Shown: in pieces, positions 19,790-40,288 of the stretch | How positions within the stretch are numbered: the first letter of the stretch is position 1 | Layout of the letters: the number at the start of each line of letters is the position of its first letter | From: Eubacteriales bacterium | GTDB lineage: Bacteria > Bacillota > Clostridia > Oscillospirales > CAG-272 | Direction: 5' to 3' | Assembly (NCBI GenBank): GCA_045531965.1 | Contig: JAZSFA010000071.1 | Span: 2,315-66,314 of the forward strand | DNA: 64,000 bases | Made by a program: the position numbers and the translations under genes | Notes under the pieces: model-generated | The model's database searches: none | The model's input: the letters and a program-made list of their open reading frames with translations, nothing else | What the model was told of the DNA's origin: nothing

Positions 19790-20782
19790 TCAATAAATAA
19801 AGCTGATAACCACGCCCAAAAGCCAAAGAAGCACAGCACCTATGGCTTGGGGGGAGGCAAAGGTGTCTCGCAGGGCAAGGTGCCACCGATGGAGAGGCAC
19901 TGTGTTCAGACCGGGCGTTTCCAACGCCGCGGGATCGTCTAACAATCCACGTAGACTGCGTCGTTTCAGGATGCGAGCGACTTCTCCGCAGAAAAAGGCG
20001 GAAGACAGAAGCAGAAGGGCGATCAGCAGGATAACCAGAAGCCCGATGCTGCCCGTGTTACGGCAGTAGCCCGAAAGCCCTGCCTGAACGAAAATGCCAA
20101 ACAGGTTGTACCCCAAATGTACGATCATGGAGGCGATGGTGGATCGGGTCACGTAGCGTACCGCGGCAAGCACCAAACCTGCAAAAAGGTAGACTGGCAA
20201 GGCGGTCAGATCAAAATGAAGAAAGGCAAAAAACAGCGAGGACAGCAGAGAAGCGTAAAGAATACCCCGATTTTCATATTCGGCGCATAGGATGCTGCGG
20301 AACAGAAGCTCCTCACAAAAAGCAGGAAGGATTCCATATGCCAGCACCAAACGAACAGAGGCTTCCGCCGAACCGTCATGAATGGATGAGAAGGTGTCAT
20401 ACAGGGTAAAGGAAGGCTGGGCGTTCATCATGCCGCAGATGAGTGCCAAAAGGGTGCATCCGCAAATGAGCATGAGGATAGCCGATAAAATCAAAAACAA
20501 ATGAGACAGAGCAGGGAGACGTAACGCCAGCTTGCCGGAAAGTGCCTTTCCCCGAAGACGTATGTAAAGATAGGCGGGGATGGGGAAGATCAGCAGTTGG
20601 AGAAGAATGGTGCTGAGATATTGGTTCTCCTCTGTTAGGAAAAACGCGTCCACCAAACGGGAGAGCAGAAGCAGAGCGTACACCGAAAAGATCAGCCATG
20701 CGGCGTGCTTATGCTCTGTCAGATCTCCGCGAAAAAAAGCTTTGAACCCTGTTTTATTCGAGGGTGTCTCGGGGGTTACCAT
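19790..20782 (-). CDS. CPBP (CAAX/Abi) family intramembrane protease
   Basis: EELLFR, FAFLH, HLGYN motifs; multi-TM. Confidence 0.9.
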   Translation of the reverse strand: MVTPETPSNKTGFKAFFRGDLTEHKHAAWLIFSVYALLLLSRLVDAFFLTEENQYLSTILLQLLIFPIPAYLYIRLRGKALSGKLALRLPALSHLFLILSAILMLICGCTLLALICGMMNAQPSFTLYDTFSSIHDGSAEASVRLVLAYGILPAFCEELLFRSILCAEYENRGILYASLLSSLFFAFLHFDLTALPVYLFAGLVLAAVRYVTRSTIASMIVHLGYNLFGIFVQAGLSGYCRNTGSIGLLVILLIALLLLSSAFFCGEVARILKRRSLRGLLDDPAALETPGLNTVPLHRWHLALRDTFASPQAIGAVLLWLLGVVISFIY

Positions 20783-23035: not shown

Positions 23036-26000
23036 ATGGCAAACGAAAAGAACAAGAAATCGACAAGCACATCATCCTCTGCCAAAAAGGGGACGAGCGC
23101 GCCTGCGAAAAAAGTGAAAACTGCCACTTCCACCAAGAAAACCCAACCTTCAAACAAAGATAAAGATAAGGAGAAGTCTGCACCCCGTCTGACTCGTGAG
23201 GAGCAACTCAAGCTTGCACAGATGCGAGATGATCGTCGCGCGGCGGCTGCGGAAAAGAAAAAGCGTTTTTCGGAACAGTATATGCCCTACGTATTGGGCG
23301 CACTGGGACTTTTGACACTTGTCTTCTTCGCGTCCTTCCTGTTTGGTCGTGACGTTGCCCCGGAGGATTATTGGATGGGGCCTGTGGGATATTGGGTCAG
23401 TTACTTCTTTTATGGTTTGTTTGGATGGCCTGCCCTTTGTATCCCGGTTCTCTTGATCTACCTTACCTTCTTTTGGCGCAAAAATTGCCGTGAAGACACT
23501 GTAGGACTGCGAATCGTTCTGTCTGTAGTGCTCATGGTAATGGTGTCGGGGGTGGTGCACGTGTTTGCATGTGCCGCGGATGAGCAATATGCGGCGATGA
23601 ACATCGGGATGTACTATCAGTCGGGTGCGACGTATGCTTCGGGTGGTGTGATTGGCGGTCTTTTAGGCTTTTTGCTGTTCCACGGCTTGAAGGTGTGGGG
23701 GACGGTGCTGATCTCAGTGCTGTTGTTCCCGCTGCTGATCATGTTCCTGATCGGCGTGACTCCCGCGTACGTGGCGTCTCGTATCAAAGCAAAGGTTGCC
23801 GCGTCCCGTGAAGCCAAAGAAGCGCGCGAGCTGGAAGAAGCCAGAGCGGCGCTGGCACAGGGTGACGAGCCTGTGCCAGCCAAAAAACGGGTGATCAAGG
23901 AAGCGCCCATGCCCGAGGATGCGGGGTCAGAGGACTACGTGCCGCCAAAACCCCGAAAAAGAAGCGCCGAGCCGGTAGCACCCGCTCGAAAAGATGCTGA
24001 CGCAGCCACACCTACTCCTGCGTCCCGCCGTGAAGAGGCACCTGCCGAGCCGCCACGCATTCTTCGCATGAATGCTGAAACGGGGGAAGTGTTGGAGGAT
24101 GCGGAAGAAGTAACGGCTCGCCGTATGCCGTCCAAAAGTAGCGCCGCTGAAGAGGAGGGCGTTTACATCCCTCCTCGCCGTAAGACTTCGGCGGTTTCTT
24201 CGGAAGATATATCCGCACGGGCAACCGCGGCAGACATTTCCCAAGAAGCTTTTACCGAGAATACCGCTCCGCGGGACGATGGTGATACAGAAGTCTCGGA
24301 TGGACAACATTATTCAGCGCCCACCGAAGGGACTGAAAAGGAGGAGGGCGGTGATGGACTGTACATTCCTACGCGCAGAATGTCCAAAGACCATTACGCA
24401 GACCGCCGAAACAACCGTATGAGTCGAAATACTTCCGGGTTTGATGAGCACGACGTGGACGATACCTTCGCCATTGACGATCTTCCGGAAAAAGTAGAAA
24501 CCTTGGAAATTTCTTGGGATGATGATGACGACGCTGAGAGTCCGGACACCTTCGGCTACCAAACGGCAGTCAATGAGGAAAAGCGGGATGTTGCTCGCGA
24601 AGATGCTGAGAAGATCGTGGTCGTAGTCAACCGCCAGGAGACGGCGGCTGTTACCGACACCACTGATCATCACGTGGAGGGATTGCCCGATGAGGAGATC
24701 GTTCTGCCCTCTGCCAAGGGGGAGGAAGTGCAGGAAGATCCTCGGGAATATGCGTTTCCCGCTATGGATCTTTTGATTCAAGGTCCCGCTCGTTATGAGG
24801 CAGACGAAAACGAAATTATTCGCAATACCCAAACACTAAGAAGTGTTTTGGAATCCTTCCACATCCGCGTCAAAGAGATCGCTTGCTCCTGTGGACCTAC
24901 CATTACTCGATATGAGGTCAAGCCCGATACGGGTGTTCGTGTCCGTTCTATTGCCAATCTGGTGGATGATATCGCACTGGGTCTTGCTAAATCGGGCGTC
25001 CGTATTGAGGCCCCCATTCCCGGTAAGGCTGCGGTGGGCATTGAGGTGCCCAACGACAAAGCCGCCAGCGTGGCGTTGCGTAATTTGATCGAAGCACCTG
25101 AGTTTGTCAACAGCAAGAGCCGTTTGACGGCTTGCTTGGGTGCTGACGTGGCGGGACGTCCTGTGATGATGGACATCAACAAAATGCCTCACCTGTTGGT
25201 GGCGGGTACCACCGGCTCGGGTAAGTCGGTTTGTATCAACTCCATCATTATGAGTATCCTCTACAAAGCGAAACCCGAAGAGGTCAAGCTGATTCTGATC
25301 GACCCCAAGAAGGTGGAATTTGCGGTCTACCGTGATTTACCGCATCTTTACTGTCCTCTGATCAGCGATCCCAAAAAGGCGGCAGGTGCCCTTAACTCCG
25401 CGGTGGTGGAGATGGAGCGCCGCTTTGAGCTGATTGAGGAAGTGGGCGTCCGCAACCTGGCAGGTTATAACGAACTGACCGCGGGAGACCCCGAGCGTCC
25501 TCCTCTGCCTCAAATGGTCATCATCATCGATGAACTGGCAGACCTGATGATGACGGCGTCCAACGAAGTGGAGACGGCGATCTGCCGTTTGGCACAGAAG
25601 GCAAGAGCTGCGGGTATCCACTTGATCCTGGGTACGCAGAGACCCTCTGTGGACGTTATCACGGGTCTGATCAAAGCCAACATTCCCTCCCGTATTGCCT
25701 TTACCGTGGCATCTGCGGTTGACTCCCGTACCATCATTGACATGGTGGGCGCCGAGAAGCTCATTGGCCGCGGTGATATGCTGTATTCCCCTGTCGGTTC
25801 TACAAAGCCCATGCGCGTGCAGGGTGCTTTCGTCAGTGACGGAGAAGTAGAGCGGGTGGTTACTTTCCTCCGTGAGCATAATGCCAAAACGGAATACGAC
25901 GAGTCCTTCATGCACCAGATTGAGGTGGAAGCTGCCAAGTGCGGGCAGGGCAAGAAGAAGGGCGGCGATGTGGGCAACATCGAGGACTTCAGCGCTCTCG

Positions 26001-26254
26001 GCGGTGACGACGAGGACGGCAAGTTCTGGGCGGCAGTGGAAGTGGCTGTGGATTCTCAGAAGATTTCCACGTCCCTGCTCCAGCGCCGTTTGAACCTTGG
26101 CTACGGCCGTGCTGCCAAGATCATCGACCGCATGGAAGAAATGGGCTTTGTGGGTCCTGCCGACGGCAACAAGCCCAGAAAGCTGCTCATCACCAAGCAG
26201 GATCTTGCCGAGATCCGCATCAGCGGACGGGCAGACGAGGCGAGCGAAGAGTAA
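23036..26254 (+). CDS. ftsK: DNA translocase FtsK/SpoIIIE
   Basis: N-terminal TMs, acidic linker, PHLLVAGTTGSGKS, IDELADLMM, gamma domain STSLLQRRLNLGYGRA. Confidence 0.97.
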   Translation: MANEKNKKSTSTSSSAKKGTSAPAKKVKTATSTKKTQPSNKDKDKEKSAPRLTREEQLKLAQMRDDRRAAAAEKKKRFSEQYMPYVLGALGLLTLVFFASFLFGRDVAPEDYWMGPVGYWVSYFFYGLFGWPALCIPVLLIYLTFFWRKNCREDTVGLRIVLSVVLMVMVSGVVHVFACAADEQYAAMNIGMYYQSGATYASGGVIGGLLGFLLFHGLKVWGTVLISVLLFPLLIMFLIGVTPAYVASRIKAKVAASREAKEARELEEARAALAQGDEPVPAKKRVIKEAPMPEDAGSEDYVPPKPRKRSAEPVAPARKDADAATPTPASRREEAPAEPPRILRMNAETGEVLEDAEEVTARRMPSKSSAAEEEGVYIPPRRKTSAVSSEDISARATAADISQEAFTENTAPRDDGDTEVSDGQHYSAPTEGTEKEEGGDGLYIPTRRMSKDHYADRRNNRMSRNTSGFDEHDVDDTFAIDDLPEKVETLEISWDDDDDAESPDTFGYQTAVNEEKRDVAREDAEKIVVVVNRQETAAVTDTTDHHVEGLPDEEIVLPSAKGEEVQEDPREYAFPAMDLLIQGPARYEADENEIIRNTQTLRSVLESFHIRVKEIACSCGPTITRYEVKPDTGVRVRSIANLVDDIALGLAKSGVRIEAPIPGKAAVGIEVPNDKAASVALRNLIEAPEFVNSKSRLTACLGADVAGRPVMMDINKMPHLLVAGTTGSGKSVCINSIIMSILYKAKPEEVKLILIDPKKVEFAVYRDLPHLYCPLISDPKKAAGALNSAVVEMERRFELIEEVGVRNLAGYNELTAGDPERPPLPQMVIIIDELADLMMTASNEVETAICRLAQKARAAGIHLILGTQRPSVDVITGLIKANIPSRIAFTVASAVDSRTIIDMVGAEKLIGRGDMLYSPVGSTKPMRVQGAFVSDGEVERVVTFLREHNAKTEYDESFMHQIEVEAAKCGQGKKKGGDVGNIEDFSALGGDDEDGKFWAAVEVAVDSQKISTSLLQRRLNLGYGRAAKIIDRMEEMGFVGPADGNKPRKLLITKQDLAEIRISGRADEASEE

Positions 26255-26265
26255 GTTTCCCCCAT

Positions 26266-26311
26266 AAACATAGACGCGGAGAGGTGAATTGCCTCTCCGC
26301 GTTTGTGTTTT
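26266..26311 (+). terminator. Terminator after ftsK
   Basis: GACGCGGAGAGG/CCTCTCCGCGTT stem plus T-rich tail. Confidence 0.85.
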
Positions 26312-26375
26312 GCCTAAAAAATAGTACCGTTTCATGGTTATAGTGCTGAAATTGAAAACAAACAAAAGATTTCGC

Positions 26376-26404
26376 TTGACAGTCCGATGACCGTGTGATA
26401 TAAT
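26376..26404 (+). promoter_or_regulatory. Sigma-A promoter of the moxR operon
   Basis: TTGACA-17 nt-TATAAT with extended TG. Confidence 0.85.
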
Positions 26405-26450
26405 AAAATCATAGTAAATGGCGTAAGTGTACGCCTCAAGGAGGTATATC

Positions 26451-27404
26451 ATGAACACCCCCCATAAGACCCAAACCCTCACCCAAAAACTGACCGATAA
26501 TATCAGCCGTGTTTTATATGGCAAAGAAGCGGTTATCAAAACATTTCTCTGTGCCTTTTTCAGCGGCGGTCACGTTCTCTTGGAGGACGTTCCGGGTACG
26601 GGTAAGACCAGCCTGGTACGCGCCCTGGCCGATTCCTTCGGCGGTGACTACAAGCGCGTGCAGTTTACCCCTGACCTGCTCCCCTCAGATATCACGGGTA
26701 TCAATTACTACCGTCAGCACACCGGGGAGTTCTCCCTCCGTAAAGGCCCCGTCTTTACCAATCTGTTTTTGGCGGACGAGATCAACCGCGCCACCCCCCG
26801 TACCCAATCCGCGCTGCTTGAGTGTATGGAGGAGCGGCAGGTGACCATCGATGGAGAGACTCTGCCCCTTTCGGATGTTTTTATGGTTATGGCGACCATG
26901 AATCCCTTGGAGTTTCAAGGCACATTCCCCCTACCCGAGGCGCAGGTGGACAGATTCATGATGAAGCTGCATCTGGGCTATCCCGATCTGGCGGGGGAGA
27001 CCCGCATCGTGGATAAGATCTGTACCGGCAACAAAGGAGATGCGGTTGAAACCGTTGCTAACATAGAGGACGTCCGTGCCGCGCGCGCTGAAATAGAGCA
27101 GGTACATATCAGTCCCGCCGTGGCAGACTACATGGTGCGCCTGATCCGTGCCACCCGAGAACATGAGAAGATCAAATTGGGCGTCAGCCCCCGCGGCGTG
27201 GTGGCTATGACCCGTGCCGTCCGTGCCTTTGCGGCTATGGAGGGGCGTGATCACGTTCTGCCCGATGATGTCAAAGCATTGGCGATTCCCGTATTGTCCC
27301 ATCGAATCATCACCCGCACCGGCAGCAGCCTCCAGCTCTCTCAGTCCGGCGAGGCATTGATCGAATATATGCTGACCAAGGTGCCTGTCGTCCTCGAAAA
27401 GTGA
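26451..27404 (+). CDS. MoxR-family AAA+ ATPase
   Basis: EDVPGTGKT, QFTPDLLPSD, DEINRA, LPEAQ.DRF. Confidence 0.95.
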   Translation: MNTPHKTQTLTQKLTDNISRVLYGKEAVIKTFLCAFFSGGHVLLEDVPGTGKTSLVRALADSFGGDYKRVQFTPDLLPSDITGINYYRQHTGEFSLRKGPVFTNLFLADEINRATPRTQSALLECMEERQVTIDGETLPLSDVFMVMATMNPLEFQGTFPLPEAQVDRFMMKLHLGYPDLAGETRIVDKICTGNKGDAVETVANIEDVRAARAEIEQVHISPAVADYMVRLIRATREHEKIKLGVSPRGVVAMTRAVRAFAAMEGRDHVLPDDVKALAIPVLSHRIITRTGSSLQLSQSGEALIEYMLTKVPVVLEK

Positions 27405-27414
27405 GGAGGAGGGT

Positions 27415-28647
27415 ATGAGTTGGTTCGTTATAGCCTTTCTCCTGGCGTTTACCATGGTGTACTTTCTGCAAAGAAAGCGTTGGCGTGCTGTCGTGGAGAA
27501 CGAGCTTTCTTACCGATTTGAATTCAGCACGGATGAAGTGTTTGCGGGAGAATATTTGTATCTTGATCAGGTTGTGATCAACAACAGCGACCGCTCCATT
27601 TCCTTTTTGAAGATGGAAACCCTGCTTCCCGAGGGGCTCAAAGTGGTATTGGCTGCCGAGGATGGAAAAGGAAGGGATGAAACCGTGCAATCGGTGCAGA
27701 GCGTGTTTCTTCTGCCACCTCATGGACAGGTCTCCCGCCGCTGGCGTATTGTCGCGGAGGTGCGCGGGCATTATACCGCACAAACCGTGCAGATGCACGT
27801 TATTTCCCATGATGCCATCGGTATGAGTACCTATTCCATGCGAATGCAACCCGAGGCATCGGTGAAAGACCGCTTGACCGTGTTGCCCATCGCCGCTGAA
27901 TGGTTGACACAAATGGCACTGTCTCCCTCCTTTGCGGGAGAGCGTACGACTTCAAAGGGACTGGTACAGGATCCCATGTCCATCTGCGGCGTTCGCGAGT
28001 ATGAGCCGTTTGATCCCCTCAATACGGTAGACTGGAAACAGACCGCCCGACTGGGACGCATGATGGTCAAAAAGCTGGAAGTCCAGCAGAACGATAGTTA
28101 CCATATCGTTTTGAATATGCAATCTGTCATTATTGAACCTGAGTTTCCTGAGATCAGCGCGCCTGCCTATGTGGAAAACTGTATTTCTTTGTGTGCCTCT
28201 CTTTTGGATAGCGCCATTCGCCGAAATATTCCTGTCCGCCTCATGGCGAACACCGAGCCTTGCGAGCTTTTGGGCGGCGGGCGTGTTCATGACGGGCCGC
28301 TCGGCTGTCATATCTTTGCCAGCGAGCAGTTTACCGATAAAAGCTCTGTCATGGAAGCTTACCGCATTCTTGCCAAACTGCCGATGAAGCTATCCCTTCC
28401 TACCGAGCGACTTCTTGAGGACATTATGGAGAATCCCTATCTGTATTCGCAGGGAGGTAATATCGTGTTTGTTACGCCTTTTGTGGATCAGCGCATGGTC
28501 AATTTTCATCGAGCCATGGCAGATCAGGGGGTCAACGTGATCTTCTACGTGATGACATCTTATCAGAACGCGTTAACTCTGCCGCCCGAGATGGAAGCCT
28601 ACTTCCGCTACAGTCATTGGAAGGGAGGTGTTGGATATGCGTCGTAA
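27415..28647 (+). CDS. DUF58 domain protein
   Basis: GVREY.P.DPL..VDWKQTAR motif; follows moxR. Confidence 0.9.
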   Translation: MSWFVIAFLLAFTMVYFLQRKRWRAVVENELSYRFEFSTDEVFAGEYLYLDQVVINNSDRSISFLKMETLLPEGLKVVLAAEDGKGRDETVQSVQSVFLLPPHGQVSRRWRIVAEVRGHYTAQTVQMHVISHDAIGMSTYSMRMQPEASVKDRLTVLPIAAEWLTQMALSPSFAGERTTSKGLVQDPMSICGVREYEPFDPLNTVDWKQTARLGRMMVKKLEVQQNDSYHIVLNMQSVIIEPEFPEISAPAYVENCISLCASLLDSAIRRNIPVRLMANTEPCELLGGGRVHDGPLGCHIFASEQFTDKSSVMEAYRILAKLPMKLSLPTERLLEDIMENPYLYSQGGNIVFVTPFVDQRMVNFHRAMADQGVNVIFYVMTSYQNALTLPPEMEAYFRYSHWKGGVGYAS

Positions 28648-30133
28648 AGGTGTTGCGCCGGCCCGATTGAAAAAGCCATCGCCTGCTAAGATGACAGGCT
28701 CTGTCAGATCGCGGATTACGGGACATAAACATATGCCCGCCACCGAAAAATGGCGGCGCCGTTGGCTGAAGCTCTACAAATTTCTTGCCTGCGTGGCGTT
28801 TTGCGCCATTATTATGCCTTATTTTGAAATTCTCGTGTCGATAGGCGCGGGACCGTACGCTACGGCTTTTACTTGGATCGCCTCCGCCCTGCTGTTTGCC
28901 GTAGGTTACGGGATTCATAAGGGAATTCGGTTTCTCTTTACCAAGGGCGATGAGGAGGAATTCAGCTTTTCCTTCGAAACTAAATGGCAGTTTTCGCCGC
29001 CCGCGATCATGATCCCTTCTCTTATTTTGGGGGCGGTGGCAGCCATTGCTTTCAGCTTTGTTTCGGGACAGATATTGGAAACGTTGCTCTATCCTTACTA
29101 TAATGCCGAAGTGGGCTTCCCACTCATGATGATTGCCTGTGTTGTTGCTTCGGTTCTTGGCAATCTTTTGGTTCCCTTCCAGTTCCATCAGCTCTGTTCT
29201 CTGAGAACATTGATCGAATGTTTGTTTGCTCTGGGTGTACCTTTTGGTATTGCTACTTGGTGGGGAAACGGCGTCAACGGACTATTTGTTGCGTGTGTGC
29301 TGGTCTATGCCCTGTGCCTGTTCGTGCTAATGAACCAAGAATATGTGATCAAGCCCTCTTATAGTTCCAAGACCTGCTATGCTACCAAAGAATTGCGCCT
29401 TTACGGTATGGGGAGAGCGGTAGGTTTGTGGCTGACGACGCTGCTGACTGCGATGGTTCTCCTCAGTCTTTTGGCGGTTTTGGTGATCCCTCTCCGCTTT
29501 TTCCTGACGCCAGATATGAGCTTGGTGTTGGATTTTCCTATCAAAGGTCTGCCCGGTTTGAATCTTATGCTGTTTTTTACGGGGCTTATCATCATCCCTG
29601 TACTGTCGGTGATGGGTATCCTGCGGTTTGTTCGTCCTCGCGGCTTGAAATACTGGGAGAAGATCATCGGGGAGCTTTTCAGAAAAATCATGGGCTTTTT
29701 CCTTCGCTTGCGCTTTTTCAAGAAAAAAGGAGCGGATGCTGATCTGGATTTCCGAGAAGTGGTAGGGGAGCGTCCAAAAAAGCAACACTACGTTGATACG
29801 GTGAGGGAACAAAAAACGGAGAGTACCGTCTTGCCGCGAGGCTACCGCGCGTTTCAGCGGCACATGAAAACGCTATCGGATATAAACGAACGTTATCGCT
29901 TTGCCTATGAGGTGCTGATCACAGAACTGTATGACGCGCACATTGGTATCGCCAAACATCAGACCCCCTTGGAAATGGCAGACGTAATCCGCCGCAAGAC
30001 CAATATCACCGAGATGGATCACTTGACAGCGACCTTTGCCAAGGTAACGTATGCTAAAGATGGCAAAGCGTCTCAAGGAGAATTGGATGTGATCTGTCGT
30101 ATACTTGAGGATCGATGGGGACGGCAGGGTTAA
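28637..30133 (+). CDS. Multi-pass membrane protein, probable C-terminal DUF4129-like domain
   Basis: Many TMs; TPLE...LT..F.KV.Y C-terminus; third gene of a moxR-DUF58 operon. Confidence 0.7.
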   Translation: MRRKGVAPARLKKPSPAKMTGSVRSRITGHKHMPATEKWRRRWLKLYKFLACVAFCAIIMPYFEILVSIGAGPYATAFTWIASALLFAVGYGIHKGIRFLFTKGDEEEFSFSFETKWQFSPPAIMIPSLILGAVAAIAFSFVSGQILETLLYPYYNAEVGFPLMMIACVVASVLGNLLVPFQFHQLCSLRTLIECLFALGVPFGIATWWGNGVNGLFVACVLVYALCLFVLMNQEYVIKPSYSSKTCYATKELRLYGMGRAVGLWLTTLLTAMVLLSLLAVLVIPLRFFLTPDMSLVLDFPIKGLPGLNLMLFFTGLIIIPVLSVMGILRFVRPRGLKYWEKIIGELFRKIMGFFLRLRFFKKKGADADLDFREVVGERPKKQHYVDTVREQKTESTVLPRGYRAFQRHMKTLSDINERYRFAYEVLITELYDAHIGIAKHQTPLEMADVIRRKTNITEMDHLTATFAKVTYAKDGKASQGELDVICRILEDRWGRQG

Positions 30134-30248
30134 GTTAACAAACGGTTCATGAACCGTTTGTTAATACTCCACATGTTGGTGGTATAATATACCCAAACCG
30201 CACGTTGATTCTGTCAACGACGCGATCAATCGCAAAGGAGAGATAACC

Positions 30249-31706
30249 ATGAAAAAAGTTTTTGTAGCAATTTTGGTTTTGTCGATGCTTTTGTCTTTGG
30301 CAATGGTGGGTACTTCCGCTCTGTCTTCCAACGTGGATGCTTCTACCTGGTCTACTGTGGAGCTTAAAGCGTTGTACGTTCAGTCCGGGTTGGATATCTA
30401 CTCGGATCTTGATGACGATTATTTCGAGTATTGGTGGGAGGATGAAGTGCCCGAGTCTGATGGCGACTGGCTTCAGGCTTGTACCATCAATATGCGTGGC
30501 TTTGCCATGTCCACCGACGGTCGCTATCTGTACATGGGTACCCTGAACGGCGGTACCGGTATCCGCGGCGTCGTGGTTTTCGACACACAGAAGTGTGTGG
30601 TCACCGATCTTTACTATCACTATGACGGCGAGGAAGCCGGTCTGCCCGGTTCTCCCTACTCTTATGCCAAGGGTATCGCTGCCGATGATCGCGGCTATGT
30701 GTACGTAGGCTTTGCTTTCTCCCAAAACTACAACCTCGTTAACCTTGGTATTGCCAAGCAGCTGGAGGACGGTACGCTGGAGGAGGTCGCGCTGGAGGCA
30801 GCCTATGAGTTTGGCGATCCCGGCGACCAGGGCGGCATCCACGTGGGTGTCAATGGTGTTGACGTGGTCAAGCTTGGCGACAACTACTACTGCTATGTGA
30901 TGGTCAACTATGATTACGATGCGCTCTACTGTTTTGACGTGACCGATCCCGCCAACCCCAAGTTGAACAAGGATTTCGGCGATAACGGTCTCATTAACTT
31001 CAGCGACGACGCTAACCCCGTCAAGGCTGACGGCTTTACCCTCAAGGAGGGTCAATATATGGACGTTGACGATGACGGTACCATTTGGTTGGTGGTCAAT
31101 GCCAACGAAGGTAAGGACGGCATTATGAAGATCGCACCCGACGGCTCTGCTTGTGCCGATGTCGTTGAGCTTTCCGGCGTATACTCTGTGGAGCATGAAG
31201 GCGGTTTCCTTCTGTGCGGTCTCAAGAGCGGTGCCTCTGTGGAGGTGTTGGATGATGCGTCCTATGAGAAGCTGGCATCCATTCCTCTGACTGCCGAGTA
31301 TGGCGACCGTGTTGTACGTATGCTCGTGATCAACGACGTGCTGTTCGTCGCCGATGCCGGTTCGGATACCACCAACTTTAACGCGGTCCATGCGGGGGCG
31401 CTATCCGCTGATGGTCAGGCATTCTTGGATTCTTTGGTAGAGAATATGGCAAAGTGGGGCGAGGAAGCCACCGAAGCGCCTACCGAGGAAGCTACCGAAG
31501 CACCTGTGGATGCAACTGAAGCTCCCGTGGATGAAACAAAGACTCCTGCAGATGAGACCGAAGCGCCCACGGATGCTGCTACCAAGGCGCCCTCCAACGA
31601 GGTCACCGAGCCCGCTGTTGAGAAAGGTTGCTCTTCTGTGATGGGTGCAAGTGCCGCGCTGATCATGATGGCTGTGGCAGCTGCCTTCATTCGCAAGAAG
31701 GACTGA
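30249..31706 (+). CDS. Secreted acidic beta-propeller-like protein with TEAP linker and C-terminal Cys-TM-basic tail
   Basis: Signal peptide; STDGRYLY, GIAADDRGYVYV blades; ends KGCSSVMGASAALIMMAVAAAFIRKKD. Confidence 0.8.
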   Translation: MKKVFVAILVLSMLLSLAMVGTSALSSNVDASTWSTVELKALYVQSGLDIYSDLDDDYFEYWWEDEVPESDGDWLQACTINMRGFAMSTDGRYLYMGTLNGGTGIRGVVVFDTQKCVVTDLYYHYDGEEAGLPGSPYSYAKGIAADDRGYVYVGFAFSQNYNLVNLGIAKQLEDGTLEEVALEAAYEFGDPGDQGGIHVGVNGVDVVKLGDNYYCYVMVNYDYDALYCFDVTDPANPKLNKDFGDNGLINFSDDANPVKADGFTLKEGQYMDVDDDGTIWLVVNANEGKDGIMKIAPDGSACADVVELSGVYSVEHEGGFLLCGLKSGASVEVLDDASYEKLASIPLTAEYGDRVVRMLVINDVLFVADAGSDTTNFNAVHAGALSADGQAFLDSLVENMAKWGEEATEAPTEEATEAPVDATEAPVDETKTPADETEAPTDAATKAPSNEVTEPAVEKGCSSVMGASAALIMMAVAAAFIRKKD

Positions 31707-31737
31707 TTTTTGCTTGCCAAATGTTGCATAATTATTC

Positions 31738-31776
31738 AAAACGGCGTGGAAATCTTCGGGTTTCCACGCCGTTTTT
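31738..31776 (+). terminator. Intrinsic terminator
   Basis: AAAACGGCGTGGAAA/TTTCCACGCCGTTTT stem with TTCG-containing loop. Confidence 0.85.
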
Positions 31777-31878
31777 ATCGAAAAATAAAAAAATATTTAA
31801 TTCGTGTTCATAATCATGCTGTATAATGAACGATATCTATGATTGGCATGACGATTTCTCGTTCGAAAGGAACGGTAT

Positions 31879-32736
31879 ATGTATAACAAAAAACTATTTC
31901 TTGATATGGATCTTTATAGCCTTCTCATGCTGGTAGGCGTGTTGGCTTGCCTGATCTTCATCCGCGTTCTTTCGGATCGCAGGAAGATGCGGGCTACTTG
32001 GCAGAACCTGGTGCTGTTCAATGCCGTGTTTGCTGTGCTTTTGGGATATGGTGGTGCCGTTTTGTTCCAAGCGTTTTATAATTTCATGGACACAGGTGTG
32101 TTCGAGATTGTGGAAAACACAGGTGCTACCTTCTATGGCGGGCTTATCGGCGGCACCGCGATGTTCATCATCATTTATTTTGTCGCCGGACATTTCTTGT
32201 TTAAAGACGGATATCACAAAACGCATTTTCGGGCTGTTTCGGATTTGGCTGTGCCTTGCATCACGGTAGCGCACGGCTTTGGACGCCTCGGCTGTCTGAT
32301 GGCGGGGTGCTGTCATGGCGCGCGCACAGATGCCTGGTACGGTGTGGCTATGGACATCCCCGATGACGGCACACACGAGCTGGTCAAGGTCATTCCCGTG
32401 CAGCTGTACGAGGCGATCTTTCTGCTCGCGTTAGCAGTCCTGACCTTCATGCTCTTTATGAAAGGGAAGAAGTATCTCATGCCTGCCTATATGGTTTCTT
32501 ATGGCATTTGGCGATTCATTGCCGAGTATCTCCGCGCGGATGACCGCGGTGCCACGGTGGTGGACTTCCTGTCACCCTCCCAGCTGATCTCGGTGCTTTT
32601 GATCTCGGGTGGCTTTGTTCTGCTTGCCATCGAGCTTTATTTGGATCATAAAAAAGCAAAGACCCTTCCTGTGCCTGCCGATAAATCCGAGGAAGACGCG
32701 CCGTCGGATGACGTGGCAGAAGAGACCGAGGTGTGA
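31879..32736 (+). CDS. lgt: Prolipoprotein diacylglyceryl transferase family protein
   Basis: FYGGLIGG, GRLGCLMAGCCHG, PVQLYE, RFIAEYLR motifs. Confidence 0.9.
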   Translation: MYNKKLFLDMDLYSLLMLVGVLACLIFIRVLSDRRKMRATWQNLVLFNAVFAVLLGYGGAVLFQAFYNFMDTGVFEIVENTGATFYGGLIGGTAMFIIIYFVAGHFLFKDGYHKTHFRAVSDLAVPCITVAHGFGRLGCLMAGCCHGARTDAWYGVAMDIPDDGTHELVKVIPVQLYEAIFLLALAVLTFMLFMKGKKYLMPAYMVSYGIWRFIAEYLRADDRGATVVDFLSPSQLISVLLISGGFVLLAIELYLDHKKAKTLPVPADKSEEDAPSDDVAEETEV

Positions 32737-32737
32737 T

Positions 32738-33589
32738 ATGCGGGATCCCATGTCTTCACCCGCATCCTCTCCCGATCCGACCACAACGGCTCCAAAACGG
32801 GACGTTCCCCGTTTGGTGGCAACCGCACTGACCTTTGTGGGTGTTGGTGTTTTGCTGTATTTTGAGGTGTTCAAGCCTGTTTTATCGGAAGATCCGACGC
32901 TGCAACGGCTATACACCATGACAGCCACCCGCGGCGTTGGTGCTGTCGTGTTTCTGGCGATTCTGCTCTCTATGGGATACCGCGTAATGAACCCGGTACG
33001 AAAACCTTTTGGGAAGGCTTTGCTGTTTTGTATCCCCGCGTTTATGGTGGTGGTGAACAATATGCCGATTTTGTCCATGATCAGCGGAGACGCGTACTTC
33101 GTTCATAGCGAACCTTGGTATCTGCTTTGGTTTGGACTGGAGTGCCTTGCCATTGGACTTTTTGAAGAAACCGCTTTTCGCGGCGTTGCGTTGCTGCTCA
33201 TTGCCGAAAAGAGGCGCGACACCAAAAAGGGGCTTTTCATGAGTATTGTGCTGTCGTCGGCGGTGTTTGGTATCATCCATCTCGCCAATATTCTGGCAGG
33301 TGCCTCTCCCGGTGCTGTGTTCCTCCAGATCGGCTATTCCTTCTTGATTGGCGCGATGTGTTCGGTGGTGCTGTTCAAGACCGCCAACATCTGGCTTTGT
33401 GTGATTTTGCACGCGGTTTATGATTTCAGCGGCAATCTGATGCCAACGTTGGGAGCCGGATCTTGGTGGGACGCGCCTACAGTGATCATTACCGCCGTGT
33501 TGGCGGTGGCAACCACGGCGTTCTACGTGATCATGTTTATTAAAATGGATCCCAAGGAAACCGAACGCTTGTATCGGTCAAATGAGTAA
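32738..33589 (+). CDS. CPBP (CAAX/Abi) family intramembrane protease
   Basis: EETAFRG, FGIIH, HAVYD motifs; starts 1 nt after the lgt stop. Confidence 0.9.
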   Translation: MRDPMSSPASSPDPTTTAPKRDVPRLVATALTFVGVGVLLYFEVFKPVLSEDPTLQRLYTMTATRGVGAVVFLAILLSMGYRVMNPVRKPFGKALLFCIPAFMVVVNNMPILSMISGDAYFVHSEPWYLLWFGLECLAIGLFEETAFRGVALLLIAEKRRDTKKGLFMSIVLSSAVFGIIHLANILAGASPGAVFLQIGYSFLIGAMCSVVLFKTANIWLCVILHAVYDFSGNLMPTLGAGSWWDAPTVIITAVLAVATTAFYVIMFIKMDPKETERLYRSNE

Positions 33590-33622: not shown

Positions 33623-34933
33623 ATGGAAAATCGTTACTATCAACCCGAGTTCGAAACCATGCCTCTTGAGGAGATGCGAAAACTGCAGTCCGAGAAGCTG
33701 GTCAAGCAAGTCAAGCACGTCTATGACAATGTCCCTTATTACCGAGAACTAATGGATAAAAAGGGTGTGTCTCCCGATGACATCAAGGGAATTGAAGATC
33801 TGTACAAACTGCCGTTTATTACTAAGGATGATCTGCGCGATCAATATCCCAACGGATTTCTTGCTGTTCCTCAGTCTCAATGCGTGCGTATCCAGTCTAC
33901 TTCGGGTACGACGGGGCGCCGTGTGGTGGCATTCTATACCCAGCACGACGTTGATCTTTGGGAGGAATGCTGCGCTCGTGCGATTATGGCAGTGGGCGGG
34001 ACTAACGAAGACGTTTGTCAGGTCGCTTACGGTTACGGTTTATTCACAGGCGGTCCCGGTCTTAACGGCGGCTCTCATAAAGTGGGATGCCTGACGTTGC
34101 CCATGTCCTCGGGTAATACCGAGCGTCAGATCCAGTTCATGATGGATCTGGGTGCGACCATCCTTTGCTGCACCCCTTCCTACGCCGCTTATATCGGCGA
34201 GTCTTTGAAGGAGCGTGGCTATAAGCCCGAGGATAACAAGCTGAAGGCGGGTATTTTTGGTGCTGAGCCTTGGACGGAAGAGATGCGACGCGATATCGAA
34301 AAGTCCCTTGGTATCAAGGCATATGATATTTACGGTCTGACCGAGATCAGTGGTCCCGGCGTGTCCTTCGAATGCACCGCTCAGGCAGGTATGCATATCA
34401 ACGAGGACCACTTCCTCGCTGAGATCATTGATCCCGACACAGGCGAGGTTCTGCCCGAGGGCGAGAAGGGTGAGCTGGTTTTCACCTGCCTTGATAAGGA
34501 AGCCTTCCCCATGATGCGTTACCGTACCCGCGACATTTGCGTGCTGACCCGCGAAAAGTGTTCTTGCGGTCGTACCCTTGTCCGCATGAGAAAGCCCATG
34601 GGACGTTCCGATGATATGTTGATCATTCGCGGTGTCAACGTGTTCCCCTCCCAGATCGAGACGGTTCTCTTGCAGGAGGGCTACGCCCCTAACTACTTTA
34701 TCGAGGTGGATCGTGTGAACAATACCGACACGCTGGATATTTACGTTGAGTTGACAGAGGAACAGTTCTCGGACACCGTGAAAGCGGTGACCTCTGCCGA
34801 AAAGTCGCTGGCGAACGCCATTAAGACCATGCTGGGCATCAACCCCGCCGTCCATTTGGTGGCACCCAAGACCATTGCCCGTTCCGAGGGCAAGGCTGTC
34901 CGTGTCAAGGACAAGAGAAAGCTGCATGATTAA
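33623..34933 (+). CDS. paaK: Phenylacetate-CoA ligase
   Basis: STSGTTG, YGLFTGG, YGLTEISGPG, RYRTRD, GRSDDMLIIRGVNVFP. Confidence 0.95.
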   Translation: MENRYYQPEFETMPLEEMRKLQSEKLVKQVKHVYDNVPYYRELMDKKGVSPDDIKGIEDLYKLPFITKDDLRDQYPNGFLAVPQSQCVRIQSTSGTTGRRVVAFYTQHDVDLWEECCARAIMAVGGTNEDVCQVAYGYGLFTGGPGLNGGSHKVGCLTLPMSSGNTERQIQFMMDLGATILCCTPSYAAYIGESLKERGYKPEDNKLKAGIFGAEPWTEEMRRDIEKSLGIKAYDIYGLTEISGPGVSFECTAQAGMHINEDHFLAEIIDPDTGEVLPEGEKGELVFTCLDKEAFPMMRYRTRDICVLTREKCSCGRTLVRMRKPMGRSDDMLIIRGVNVFPSQIETVLLQEGYAPNYFIEVDRVNNTDTLDIYVELTEEQFSDTVKAVTSAEKSLANAIKTMLGINPAVHLVAPKTIARSEGKAVRVKDKRKLHD

Positions 34934-34950
34934 GGGGAGGGAGGAGTACA

Positions 34951-35000
34951 CAAGGGAAACTTTTGATAATCGTTCCCCTTGACCCCTCAAAACCTTTTAA
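34951..35000 (+). repeat. REP-like repeat copy (degenerate)
   Basis: CAAGGGAAACTTTTGATAATCGTTCCCCTTGACCCCTCAAAACCTTTT. Confidence 0.75.
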
Positions 35001-35112
35001 AAAAGAGCAAGGACACTCATTAAAAGATCAAAAGCTATAGGTTTAGCGAATCCGTAGAGGAAGGAATTGCTCCTCTCGACAAAAATCACTTCGACTGAAA
35101 GGAAATAATATC

Positions 35113-35550
35113 ATGGCAATCCGACAGATTTCCGTATTTGTACCCAACCAAAACGGCTCCCTTGAGAAATTGGTCAATATTCTGGCTGAGGCGCAGGTGG
35201 ATATGCGCGCCATGGCCATTGCCGATACGATGGAATTTGGCATACTTCGCATGATCGTGAAGGGTCACGACAAGGCTTGTGAAGCTCTCCGCGGAGCCGG
35301 GTATCTTGTATCCCAGAATGAGGTTACCGCCGTCGAGATCCCCGATCAGCCCGGCGGACTGGCTCGTGTAGTCAGCGTCCTGGCAAGCCACGGTGTCAAC
35401 ATTGAGTATACCTACGCCTTTATGACTCGCTCTCACGGTCACGCCTGCGTGGTGTTCCGTGTAGAGGACAACGAATTGGTGGAAAACATTTTGGCACAAA
35501 ACGATATCGTCTGCCTCAAGCATATTGGCAGTGACGAGACACCCTGGTAA
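35113..35550 (+). CDS. Tandem ACT domain protein (paaK-associated)
   Basis: QISVF..N..G.L, D.PGGLA, NIEYTYAF. Confidence 0.9.
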   Translation: MAIRQISVFVPNQNGSLEKLVNILAEAQVDMRAMAIADTMEFGILRMIVKGHDKACEALRGAGYLVSQNEVTAVEIPDQPGGLARVVSVLASHGVNIEYTYAFMTRSHGHACVVFRVEDNELVENILAQNDIVCLKHIGSDETPW

Positions 35551-38779: not shown

Positions 38780-40288
38780 ATGAAGAACACAATGTTAAAG
38801 CTTTTGGCTCTTCTGATGGCTTGTCTCATGGTCTTCTCGTGCTTTGTCGCTTGCGGCGAGAGCAGCGATAACCCTGCGGACTCCAAAGAGGGGGACAGCA
38901 AAAAGCCCGAAGATGCGGCGACGGAAGAAGATACCGTGGATGAGGTCTCCGAGGCGTTGAGCGCGCTTGACGAGATCGATTGGGGCGGCGAAGAATTTTC
39001 TATTCTGCACGCTGAGCGTTATGAGAGTGAGATCTGGGGCGAAAACAAGGTCGTCGATAAAGAAAACGGCGGAGACCAGCTCATCAACGACGCTGTGTAC
39101 GAGAGAAACACTCTGCTTGAAGATAAGTGTAAGCTGGTTTTCAATCACGTGGCTCAACCCGATGCGGCCATTCAGAAAACGGTGATCAATGAAGCTGCTG
39201 CGACCACCGGTGATTTTCATCTGATCACCAACAACGCAAGAGAGACTGCCACTTATGCAACCAGCGGTTATCTCCGCGATTTTGTCGATATGGGTATTGA
39301 TCTTGAGTATTCTTGGTGGGATGCCGGTACTGCCGATTTTGCGCTGGAGGGCAAGGTGTTCTTTATGAACGGCGCCCATAACTTTGCCGATGATAACGTG
39401 ACTTACGTTTTGATCTTCAATAAAGAGATGCAGGCAGAATTTGCCAATACCGTTCCCAATCCCTATGATACCGTTCTGAACTGGGAGTGGACGCTGGATT
39501 ACTTCAACAAGGTCATTCAGGGTGTCTCCTCCGACAGCAACGGTGACGGTACCTACGATGCACTGGATACATACGGCTTCCTGACAACTTGGGAATACGG
39601 TAACACCTTCTTTATGGGTTCCGACCTCCGTTACGTTCTCAATGACAAGGACTCTGTAGAGCCTACGCTGTTCCTGGACGGCGGTAAGATGGAAAAGGCG
39701 CTGAACGTGCTGCAGCTGGCAACAGCCATTTACCACGATAACGATGCTACCTTTATGTCCCCCGGCGGTCAGGAAGCGCTGGGTCTGGCTGCCTTTAAGG
39801 AAGGTCGCGGTTTGTTCTATGGCGAGGTTGCTCAATACCTGACAGCCTTGAACCGCGAGATGGAAGGTGACTATGGCGTTCTTCCTGTGCCGAAGTACGA
39901 CAAGGCTCAGGAGTTCTACCGCACCTGGACTCACGACAGCGGCTCTACCTTGTCTGTCACCGCCGCGATCCCCGATTCCAAGGCAGAGCTTGTGGGTGAC
40001 ATCATCCAGATGTATGCTATCCTTTCTTATCAGTACGTCAAGCCTAAGTTCTACGACGTGATGCTGTCCACCAAGAGCGTGCGTGACCCTCAGTCCCCCG
40101 TGATGCTGGACCTCATCTTCCAGAACCGTGTCTACGATATGGCGATGTACTTTGACCTTGGCTTCTACGAGCTGTTCAAAACCGACGTCAACAACAAGGA
40201 CGGCTCCTTCTCCTCCGGCTATGAGAAGAGCAGAAAGCGTTTTGACAAGAAGATCAATCAGATCCTTGACAAGCTGAGAAAAGAATAA
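38780..40288 (+). CDS. Extracellular solute-binding lipoprotein (paralog of 14938..16437)
   Basis: Lipobox CFVAC; shares INDAVYERN, FFMNGAHN, EWTLDYFN, REMEGDYG blocks (exact or near-exact) with the paralog. Confidence 0.85.
   Translation: MKNTMLKLLALLMACLMVFSCFVACGESSDNPADSKEGDSKKPEDAATEEDTVDEVSEALSALDEIDWGGEEFSILHAERYESEIWGENKVVDKENGGDQLINDAVYERNTLLEDKCKLVFNHVAQPDAAIQKTVINEAAATTGDFHLITNNARETATYATSGYLRDFVDMGIDLEYSWWDAGTADFALEGKVFFMNGAHNFADDNVTYVLIFNKEMQAEFANTVPNPYDTVLNWEWTLDYFNKVIQGVSSDSNGDGTYDALDTYGFLTTWEYGNTFFMGSDLRYVLNDKDSVEPTLFLDGGKMEKALNVLQLATAIYHDNDATFMSPGGQEALGLAAFKEGRGLFYGEVAQYLTALNREMEGDYGVLPVPKYDKAQEFYRTWTHDSGSTLSVTAAIPDSKAELVGDIIQMYAILSYQYVKPKFYDVMLSTKSVRDPQSPVMLDLIFQNRVYDMAMYFDLGFYELFKTDVNNKDGSFSSGYEKSRKRFDKKINQILDKLRKE

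Follow-up and report, generated by a model that had tools for sequence, protein, structure and literature searches.

A Cys-CTERM sorting system in Clostridia with a probable dedicated Lgt-family lipidating enzyme

Results

We analysed a 64,000-nucleotide stretch of contig JAZSFA010000071.1 (positions 2,315 to 66,314, hereafter the window) from a Eubacteriales bacterium, assembly GCA_045531965.1. Within it, the gene for a secreted protein of 485 amino acids with a cysteine-containing C-terminal tag is followed by genes for an Lgt-family transferase and a CPBP/Rce1-like intramembrane protease. These belong to a Cys-CTERM/CPBP-type system which is real and undescribed, and which has an extra part absent from the known systems. 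The tag is very likely a sorting signal served by the lgt-adjacent CPBP, and the Lgt of the pair is probably the dedicated lipidating enzyme of a myxosortase-like Cys-CTERM system in monoderm Clostridia (the host is taken as monoderm because its class is Clostridia). A first-pass annotation had proposed C-terminal Cys sorting at this locus. Our analysis supports its interpretation, and none of the computable findings which it had named against itself (a tag confined to one protein, a variable Cys, tag-rich genomes lacking the CPBP orthologue) was made.

The protein had been described as secreted, with a T/E/A/P linker, the residues KGCSS, a hydrophobic helix, a terminal RKKD and no LPxTG, and each of these statements holds for the open reading frame (ORF) at 30249-31706 (Table 1). 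The N-terminus is a hydrophobic signal-like segment, and the codon of the tag Cys (C461) lies at 31629-31631. No Pfam or NCBIfam family scored above its cut-off on this protein. Its body may be β-propeller-like, a lead only, which comes from language-model matches to SGL/NHL propeller clusters in the Atlas (0.91, 163 shared features).

In its own genome, which is 97.9% complete, 46 secreted proteins end in a GCxS-helix-KKK tail and four more, recovered by a hidden Markov model (HMM), in an xCxS variant. The proteome scan suggested earlier therefore found about 50 proteins and not a single-protein tag. The search pattern gave 50 matches, of which four were removed by eye as non-tags and 46 kept. 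We also selected ORFs without regard to Cys (at least 300 amino acids, signal-like N-terminus, no internal helix, C-terminal helix and basic tail). GC stood just ahead of the helix in 46 of these 58 and xCxS in four more, and since 50 of 58 ORFs picked blind to Cys carry the Cys motif, the tag is not a chance pattern. All 46 tagged proteins have a signal-like N-terminus by a hydrophobicity rule, and an N-terminal lipobox was found in none of them. BLAST sorts their bodies into 14 groups. Domains in the 39 proteins scanned include GH2, CBM, F5/8, GDPD, NAGPA, NPCBM and Ig-like, with glycosidases among them, and in the 46 tagged proteins the 40 residues before the tag consist of 20% T, 19% E, 11% A and 11% P.

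The 20 top tag matches from five other Lgt-carrying genomes all have the form GCx(S/G)-helix-basic, and the Cys is present in 20/20. The G and C were demanded by the search pattern while the S at +2 was free; S occupies this position in 43/46 own and 19/20 foreign tags. We compared the tag with what has been set out for tripartite sorting signals (bioRxiv 2023.06.07.544157; this and all other papers are cited from the parts available to us). It is C-terminal, occurs many times per genome and is built of a motif, a hydrophobic helix and a basic cluster, with GCxS supplying about three nearly invariant signature residues. The clients have signal-like N-termini and are otherwise unrelated, and a candidate cognate protease, the CPBP, co-occurs with the tag or lies beside it.

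Among the matches listed when 40 tagged proteins were scanned at full length (E ≤ 0.05-0.1), none was to the curated MYXO-, Synerg-, JDVT- or CGP-CTERM HMMs. With 48 tag peptides, among the matches listed (25 of 32 families), weak hits went to MYXO-CTERM (2), Synerg (4) and JDVT (2), and 13-14 to LPXTG/NPXTG models, so that Cys-CTERM models did no better than these. Neither the tag nor the CPBP reached any NCBIfam (June 2026) sorting-signal or myxosortase model.

Some tagged ORFs of the own genome (G000) are of unusual size. Three encode giant proteins of 5878, 4465 and 4045 amino acids (G000:C44:26873-44509, C107:65973-79370 and C167:2378-14515), and two strong tag matches stand in open frames of only 60 codons (G000:C148:2704-2802 and C152:38274-38351), which may be remnants of tagged genes that are broken or were mis-assembled. 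Two other genomes (L088, G086:C98:13300-16400; and G114:C28) encode tandem secreted proteins, four per genome, with an acidic linker and an (E/P)TG-helix-KK tail without Cys. This tail may represent a further C-terminal sorting signal or else a sortase variant.

The two genes next to the tagged gene had been read as lgt and, one base past its stop on the same strand, CPBP, and both ORFs are there. A possible ATG of the protease gene is at 32738, one base past the lgt stop codon (32734-32736). The Lgt scores 116 bits with Pfam LGT (PF01790; cut-off 24.9). On the canonical equivalog TIGR00544 it stays below the cut-off (86.5 vs 118.9), and its position N146 is Cys. Its signature reads GRLGCLMAGCCHG. 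Y13, R136, G147, Y208, R212, E216 and R219 correspond to E. coli Y26, R143, G154, Y235, R239, E243 and R246, and are kept across a 43-member clade in which one row is truncated. The predicted model (predicted local distance difference test, pLDDT, 83) had E. coli Lgt 5AZB as its sole match (E 5e-7, TM-score 0.59). The enzyme thus combines the Pfam match, the Lgt fold and the essential residues Y26, R143, G154, Y235, R239 and R246 of the Lgt family. The position of E. coli H103 is Tyr in the clade and likewise in the canonical Lgt of the same genome, as is usual in Firmicutes Lgt (PMC13251419). All 43 members carry C139, C144 and C145 in place of E. coli N146, E151 and L152. The clade has a Shimodaira-Hasegawa-like approximate likelihood ratio support of 99 in a quick tree of 43 rows, and its boundary was drawn once the tree and the gap in scores (298 vs 243 bits) were known.

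The GRxGC..GCC variant which the first-pass annotation had noted is present in this ORF, but it is not particular to the system. We rejected it as a marker, since it is a known widespread variant found in many Clostridia without the tail. Many untagged Clostridia have Lgt paralogues of the GCC type, and the neighbourhoods of these genes are unrelated (L110-L126, L154-L162). In one of these loci (L115) the Lgt lies within a 731-codon frame along with a peptidase-like gene that stands separate in another (L123).

Among 20 longer homologues found with the Lgt profile at 551-2000 amino acids, 19 are fusions of the Lgt clade with galactokinase (P0001-P0019, ~640-655 amino acids), and at Scatosoma-like loci (L053, L055-L059) lgt is followed by a galactokinase-like gene in an ORF of its own. 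A fusion of Lgt with CPBP was considered and rejected: a 575-codon frame in G401 is no evidence for it because the frame crosses ~100 N bases. None was found among the 20 Lgt-profile matches, nor did the CPBP profile match anything at 507-2000 amino acids, both of which are weak negatives.

The CPBP scores 58.7 bits with PF02517 (cut-off 22.4). Numbered from the M at 32750, it carries E139-E140-x3-R144, F173-x3-H177 and H221, which are invariant in 14 sequences, the last position of the motifs being D or N. We take the CPBP/Rce1 catalytic motifs to be EExxxR, FxxxH and HxxxN. The model (pLDDT 87) found chains of MmRce1 4CAD as its best PDB matches with probability 1.0, at an E-value of only 0.01, and a profile search of PDB sequences gave no match. 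By Pfam, fold and motifs the protein is a CPBP/Rce1-like glutamic intramembrane protease. It is far below the myxosortase cut-offs (Mrt_core 23/100, MrtJ 19.6/75, MrtP 16.9/250). Among the 14 members, the best E-value to any myxosortase subfamily was 3e-8, and to MrtS 0.002.

The distribution of the tag was followed with profiles of 20 Lgts chosen by similarity (A1), 14 lgt-adjacent CPBPs (A2) and 48 tags from six genomes (A4). Among 130 genomes of the family, 24 carry the CPBP orthologue (at least 198 bits; next 59) and 26 carry tags; the two overlap in 24, and 104 have neither. The predicted co-occurrence thus held, with the orthologue in 24/26 tagged genomes and in 0/104 untagged ones. One genome was dropped from the tagged set (G425; match in a 39-codon frame, no tag when translated) and one added (G483; E 1.7e-4, a real GC tag). 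The raw table at the preset E ≤ 1e-4 has tags in 23/24 CPBP-positive and 3/106 CPBP-negative genomes. The Lgt clade is found in 23/24 CPBP-bearing genomes, which are always tagged, and always directly upstream of the CPBP. The pairing is therefore conserved, as had been asked of it, and in the exception (G479) both lgt and CPBP are cut by contig ends. In a sample of 150 genomes of the order, two (G319, G352) have tag, CPBP and Lgt clade and 148 have none. In 250 genomes of the class, with at most 31 candidates scored per genome, the CPBP orthologue and true Cys tags were found only in G141 and G215; ten of the 12 tag matches were judged to be non-Cys tails, four after translation and six from the matched range alone.

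The nearest named relatives with identical gene order are metagenome-assembled genomes of Clostridia, Oscillospiraceae or Eubacteriales. At 19 named loci, lgt and CPBP are adjacent in 13 and lgt stands apart in six Scatosoma-like records; in 3/5 Scatosoma-like genomes the CPBP lies elsewhere, and tags are present in both of the two checked. In 10/24 family genomes the gene immediately 5' of lgt is a tagged one. Including our own, these upstream genes belong to at least five unrelated protein families by BLAST (L185 was not in the BLAST), and the lgt-CPBP pair persists though its neighbourhoods change. The caveat of the first-pass annotation, a terminator between the tagged gene and lgt, was borne out: T's follow a 17-bp hairpin at 31738-31775, which has -27.5 kcal/mol (z -6.7) and no equal in 200 shuffles. 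A simple terminator scan did not pick it up. The clients next to the pair change while the pair itself stays, much as a housekeeping unit would, so the terminator is no argument against the link.

The own genome has two Lgts, the one of the pair and a separate canonical one (190 bits vs 86.5 on TIGR00544), so the second lgt that had been looked for exists. It also has one LspA and five CPBPs, of which only the lgt neighbour matches the profile of lgt-adjacent CPBPs. A tag scan gave no credible LPxTG client, and PF04203 had no match in this genome. Strict exclusion of sortase by the tag was rejected: sortase is depleted in tagged genomes of the family, yet present in 9/26 of them vs 27/36 untagged ones, the latter being those already tabulated and not a random draw. 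About 135 candidate N-terminal lipoproteins were counted in the own genome by a rough pattern (e.g. window 38780-40288), a large number beside the ~50 tagged proteins.

Discussion

In the route that we propose, Sec would export the tagged protein and the tail helix would hold it in the membrane, with the lysines inside and the Cys at the outer face. We infer that the second Lgt would then move diacylglyceryl from phosphatidylglycerol onto the Cys thiol and that the CPBP, acting afterwards, would cleave after the lipidated Cys and remove the helix. A lipid at its C-terminus would anchor the product to the monoderm membrane, from which it would extend on its T/E/A/P linker with no need of a sortase, and the canonical Lgt and LspA would continue with N-terminal lipoproteins. 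That export, lipidation of the tag Cys by the Lgt of the pair and cleavage by the CPBP yield a lipid-anchored surface protein seems to us reasonably likely, with the lipidation by this Lgt as the weaker link.

We lean only slightly towards a complete sortase-independent 'reverse lipoprotein' pathway, in which an Lgt paralogue would read a mirror-image C-terminal lipobox and a coupled Rce1-like protease would act as LspA. G/A/S at +1, S at +2 and an aliphatic residue at +3 would make a reversed lipobox and would suit an Lgt adapted to an inverted topology. Residue +1 after the Cys is G/A/S in 34/46 own and 16/20 foreign tags, residue +2 is S/A/T in 44/46 and 19/20, and +3 is mostly aliphatic. 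The resemblance to the lipobox (as defined in PMC4728403) in reverse is suggestive only, because small residues are common at helix starts.

Several observations weigh against the proposed route. The strict lipobox read backwards fits only 18/46 own tags (9/20 foreign ones). The 24 family genomes come from 15 genera but could all belong to one clade; the counts ignore kinship, and the Fisher p-values drawn from them overstate the co-occurrence. G141 (94% complete) has at least 16 tags and the CPBP but no clade Lgt; the Lgts that it does have are a canonical one and a distant one of GCC type. In its congener G530 (85%) tags occur with neither CPBP nor clade Lgt, and the family of these two, with 20 genomes only, added little. 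G416 (8% contaminated) and G499 (90%) are tagged without the pair, as is G534 (93%), with one tag. The sole Lgt found in G215 (99% complete) is GCC-type, on a long branch unplaced in the tree, with LspA present. Seven untagged genomes have an Lgt of a sister clade (196-243 bits), which two tagged genomes also carry as a second copy, and distant GCC-type Lgts are widespread in untagged genomes, 17 of them at 92-140 bits in the order sample. N146C variants have been described before: Leptospira Lgt rescues E. coli viability poorly, and MSMEG_5408 is presumed to have low activity (PMC13251419). Such reports of poor or low activity, if they extend to this clade, would also count against it.

In G215 (L082, L085) three tags were verified and the CPBP orthologue is unlinked. 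Since its sole Lgt is GCC-type and stands beside LspA, GCC-type Lgts may serve ordinary lipoproteins, and in G215 Cys residues at either terminus may be substrates of a single enzyme.

The CPBP could be the true sorting protease next to an Lgt that is not dedicated to it, with the canonical or any GCC-type Lgt lipidating the Cys and the paralogue kept by linkage. G141 and the single GCC-type Lgt of G215 would fit such an arrangement, as would the slightly better tracking of the tag by the CPBP than by the Lgt, and MrtX processed its tag in E. coli without a dedicated partner (PMC11980579). However, the clade Lgt is found in 0/104 untagged family genomes and 0/148 untagged genomes of the order sample. 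The pair is also kept in changing neighbourhoods, with both genes retained when unlinked, and a canonical Lgt is already at hand in the own genome, so we regard this explanation as unlikely, if the most serious of those considered.

Other chemistry by the pair is improbable. The three Cys of the Lgt, invariant in the 43 clade members, could carry an acyl group and form a thioester, or the CPBP could cut first or without lipid and release the protein, and anchor chemistry is established for no Cys-CTERM system (bioRxiv 2023.06.07.544157). Against this, genomes without the tag have the same three Cys in their Lgts of the sister clade and of more distant GCC type, a structural disulfide has been proposed for the Leptospira N146C Lgt (PMC13251419), and the phosphatidylglycerol-binding arginines are kept. 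It is still less probable that the pair tailors N-terminal lipoproteins, like the CPBP-like LnsB of Staphylococcus (PMC7387801), with the tail as a plain anchor and the co-occurrence due to shared ancestry: the 135 candidate lipoproteins, the terminator and counts blind to kinship would allow it, but LnsB is without the CPBP catalytic motifs (PMC7387801) that are invariant here, a plain anchor needs no invariant Cys-x-Ser, tag and CPBP go together in other families (G141, G215, Scatosoma-like), and five unrelated tagged families lie upstream of the pair.

The closest known system is MYXO-CTERM (TIGR03901) with MrtX/MrtC/MrtP (NF040914) in Myxococcota and Bradymonadales. It likewise has a tripartite tail with an invariant Cys, dozens of clients per genome and a single-copy CPBP of matching distribution, for which lipidation followed by cleavage has been proposed (bioRxiv 2023.06.07.544157; PMC11980579), and the CPBP myxosortase cleaves MYXO-CTERM in a Cys-dependent manner (PMC11980579). 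The lipidating enzyme for a Cys of this type is stated to be unknown, an Lgt-like partner is only proposed and the inverted topology is an open problem (PMC11980579; bioRxiv 2023.06.07.544157). The Clostridia system differs in being monoderm, with no outer membrane to cross, in its GCxS motif, in a Lys- rather than Arg-rich tail, in a protease at 23 bits against a cut-off of 100, and in a candidate lipidating enzyme encoded beside the protease, whereas that of MYXO-CTERM has not been identified. Synerg-CTERM/MrtS, JDVT-CTERM/MrtJ and CGP-CTERM/MrtA are also Cys-containing tripartite tags that profile and neighbourhood link to CPBP subfamilies, and the JDVT-CTERM client gene is often beside the protease locus, as here. 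They belong to other lineages and have other motifs, and no Lgt partner is described for them.

With the Lgt/LspA pathway (TIGR00544, 5AZB) the system shares the fold, most essential residues, the order of lipid on Cys followed by removal of a helix by an intramembrane protease and, read in reverse, a resemblance to the lipobox (PMC4728403). The chain polarity is opposite, CPBP takes the place of LspA, and the Lgt has the N146C/GCC signature and lies below TIGR00544; the canonical Lgt and LspA are separate genes in the own genome. Sortase/LPxTG systems (including Rumino_NPXTG, NF033846) likewise combine signal peptide, linker, motif, helix and basic tail and display carbohydrate-active proteins on monoderm surfaces, whereas here no LPxTG-like client or sortase was found in the own genome and the predicted anchor is a membrane lipid and not peptidoglycan. 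Eukaryotic CAAX processing also has Cys lipidation (prenylation) followed by Rce1-family cleavage, and our CPBP model is nearest to MmRce1 4CAD. In Clostridia, unlike CAAX, the Cys is ~25 residues from the end, ahead of a membrane helix and at the outer face, and the predicted donor is a phospholipid.

The first-pass annotation knew of no described equivalent, and we found none in the literature searched, which lay largely outside subscription journals. A term search of the available main text of bioRxiv 2023.06.07.544157 gave no Lgt, Firmicutes, Clostrid-, Bacillota or lipoprotein. Gene order and distribution tie a specific Lgt clade to a Cys tag and make it a concrete candidate lipidating enzyme. 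With two genes and a 27-residue tail, the question of the lipidating enzyme therefore becomes directly testable. Our results extend Cys-CTERM sorting to monoderm Clostridia and point, in abundant gut bacteria that are uncultured, to dozens of surface enzymes per genome that lack annotation. If the 'reverse lipoprotein' pathway is true, its Lgt would be the first lipidating enzyme to be identified for a Cys-CTERM signal of any kind, and the pathway would be the main way in which several lineages of uncultured gut Clostridia display carbohydrate-active enzymes on their surface. Should the product be a C-terminal S-diacylglyceryl-Cys, it would form a new class of lipoproteins missed by lipobox predictors.

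Locus features

The features of the locus are collected in Table 1. The promoter is a consensus match only, and the number of such sites in the region equals that of shuffles.

Table 1. Features around the tagged gene and the lgt-CPBP pair (window coordinates).
Feature	Position	Strand	Description
Sigma-70-like promoter match	30161..30188	+	5' of the tagged gene; 10/12 consensus bases, TG ahead of the -10 box
Secreted 485-amino-acid tagged protein	30249..31706	+	Signal-like N-terminus, acidic body, linker, Cys tag
Thr/Glu/Ala/Pro-rich low-complexity linker	31461..31619	+	Residues 405-457
Tripartite C-terminal sorting tag	31623..31703	+	K459-G-C461-S-S, hydrophobic helix, RKKD-stop
Intrinsic terminator-like 17-bp hairpin and T run	31738..31779	+	Between the tagged gene and lgt-CPBP
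Second Lgt-family transferase, N146C/GCC type	31879..32736	+	Pfam LGT, retained essential residues
CPBP/Rce1-like intramembrane protease, candidate sorting protease	32738..33589	+	PF02517, invariant catalytic motifs

Upstream of the tagged gene (23036-30133, plus strand) lie FtsK/SpoIIIE, MoxR AAA, DUF58 and a membrane protein with a weak DUF4129 match. Several relatives have FtsK immediately before the lgt-CPBP pair, which makes the MoxR block and the tagged gene look like insertions. On the 3' side of the CPBP (33623-35550, plus strand) are a PaaK-like CoA ligase, below the cut-off of TIGR02155, and a 145-amino-acid protein which we take to be ACT-like. Both trail the CPBP in the closest relatives only and are probably unrelated to the Cys-tag system. 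The window also holds a second, unrelated CPBP gene (19790-20782, minus strand), which gave no match to the profile of lgt-adjacent CPBPs.

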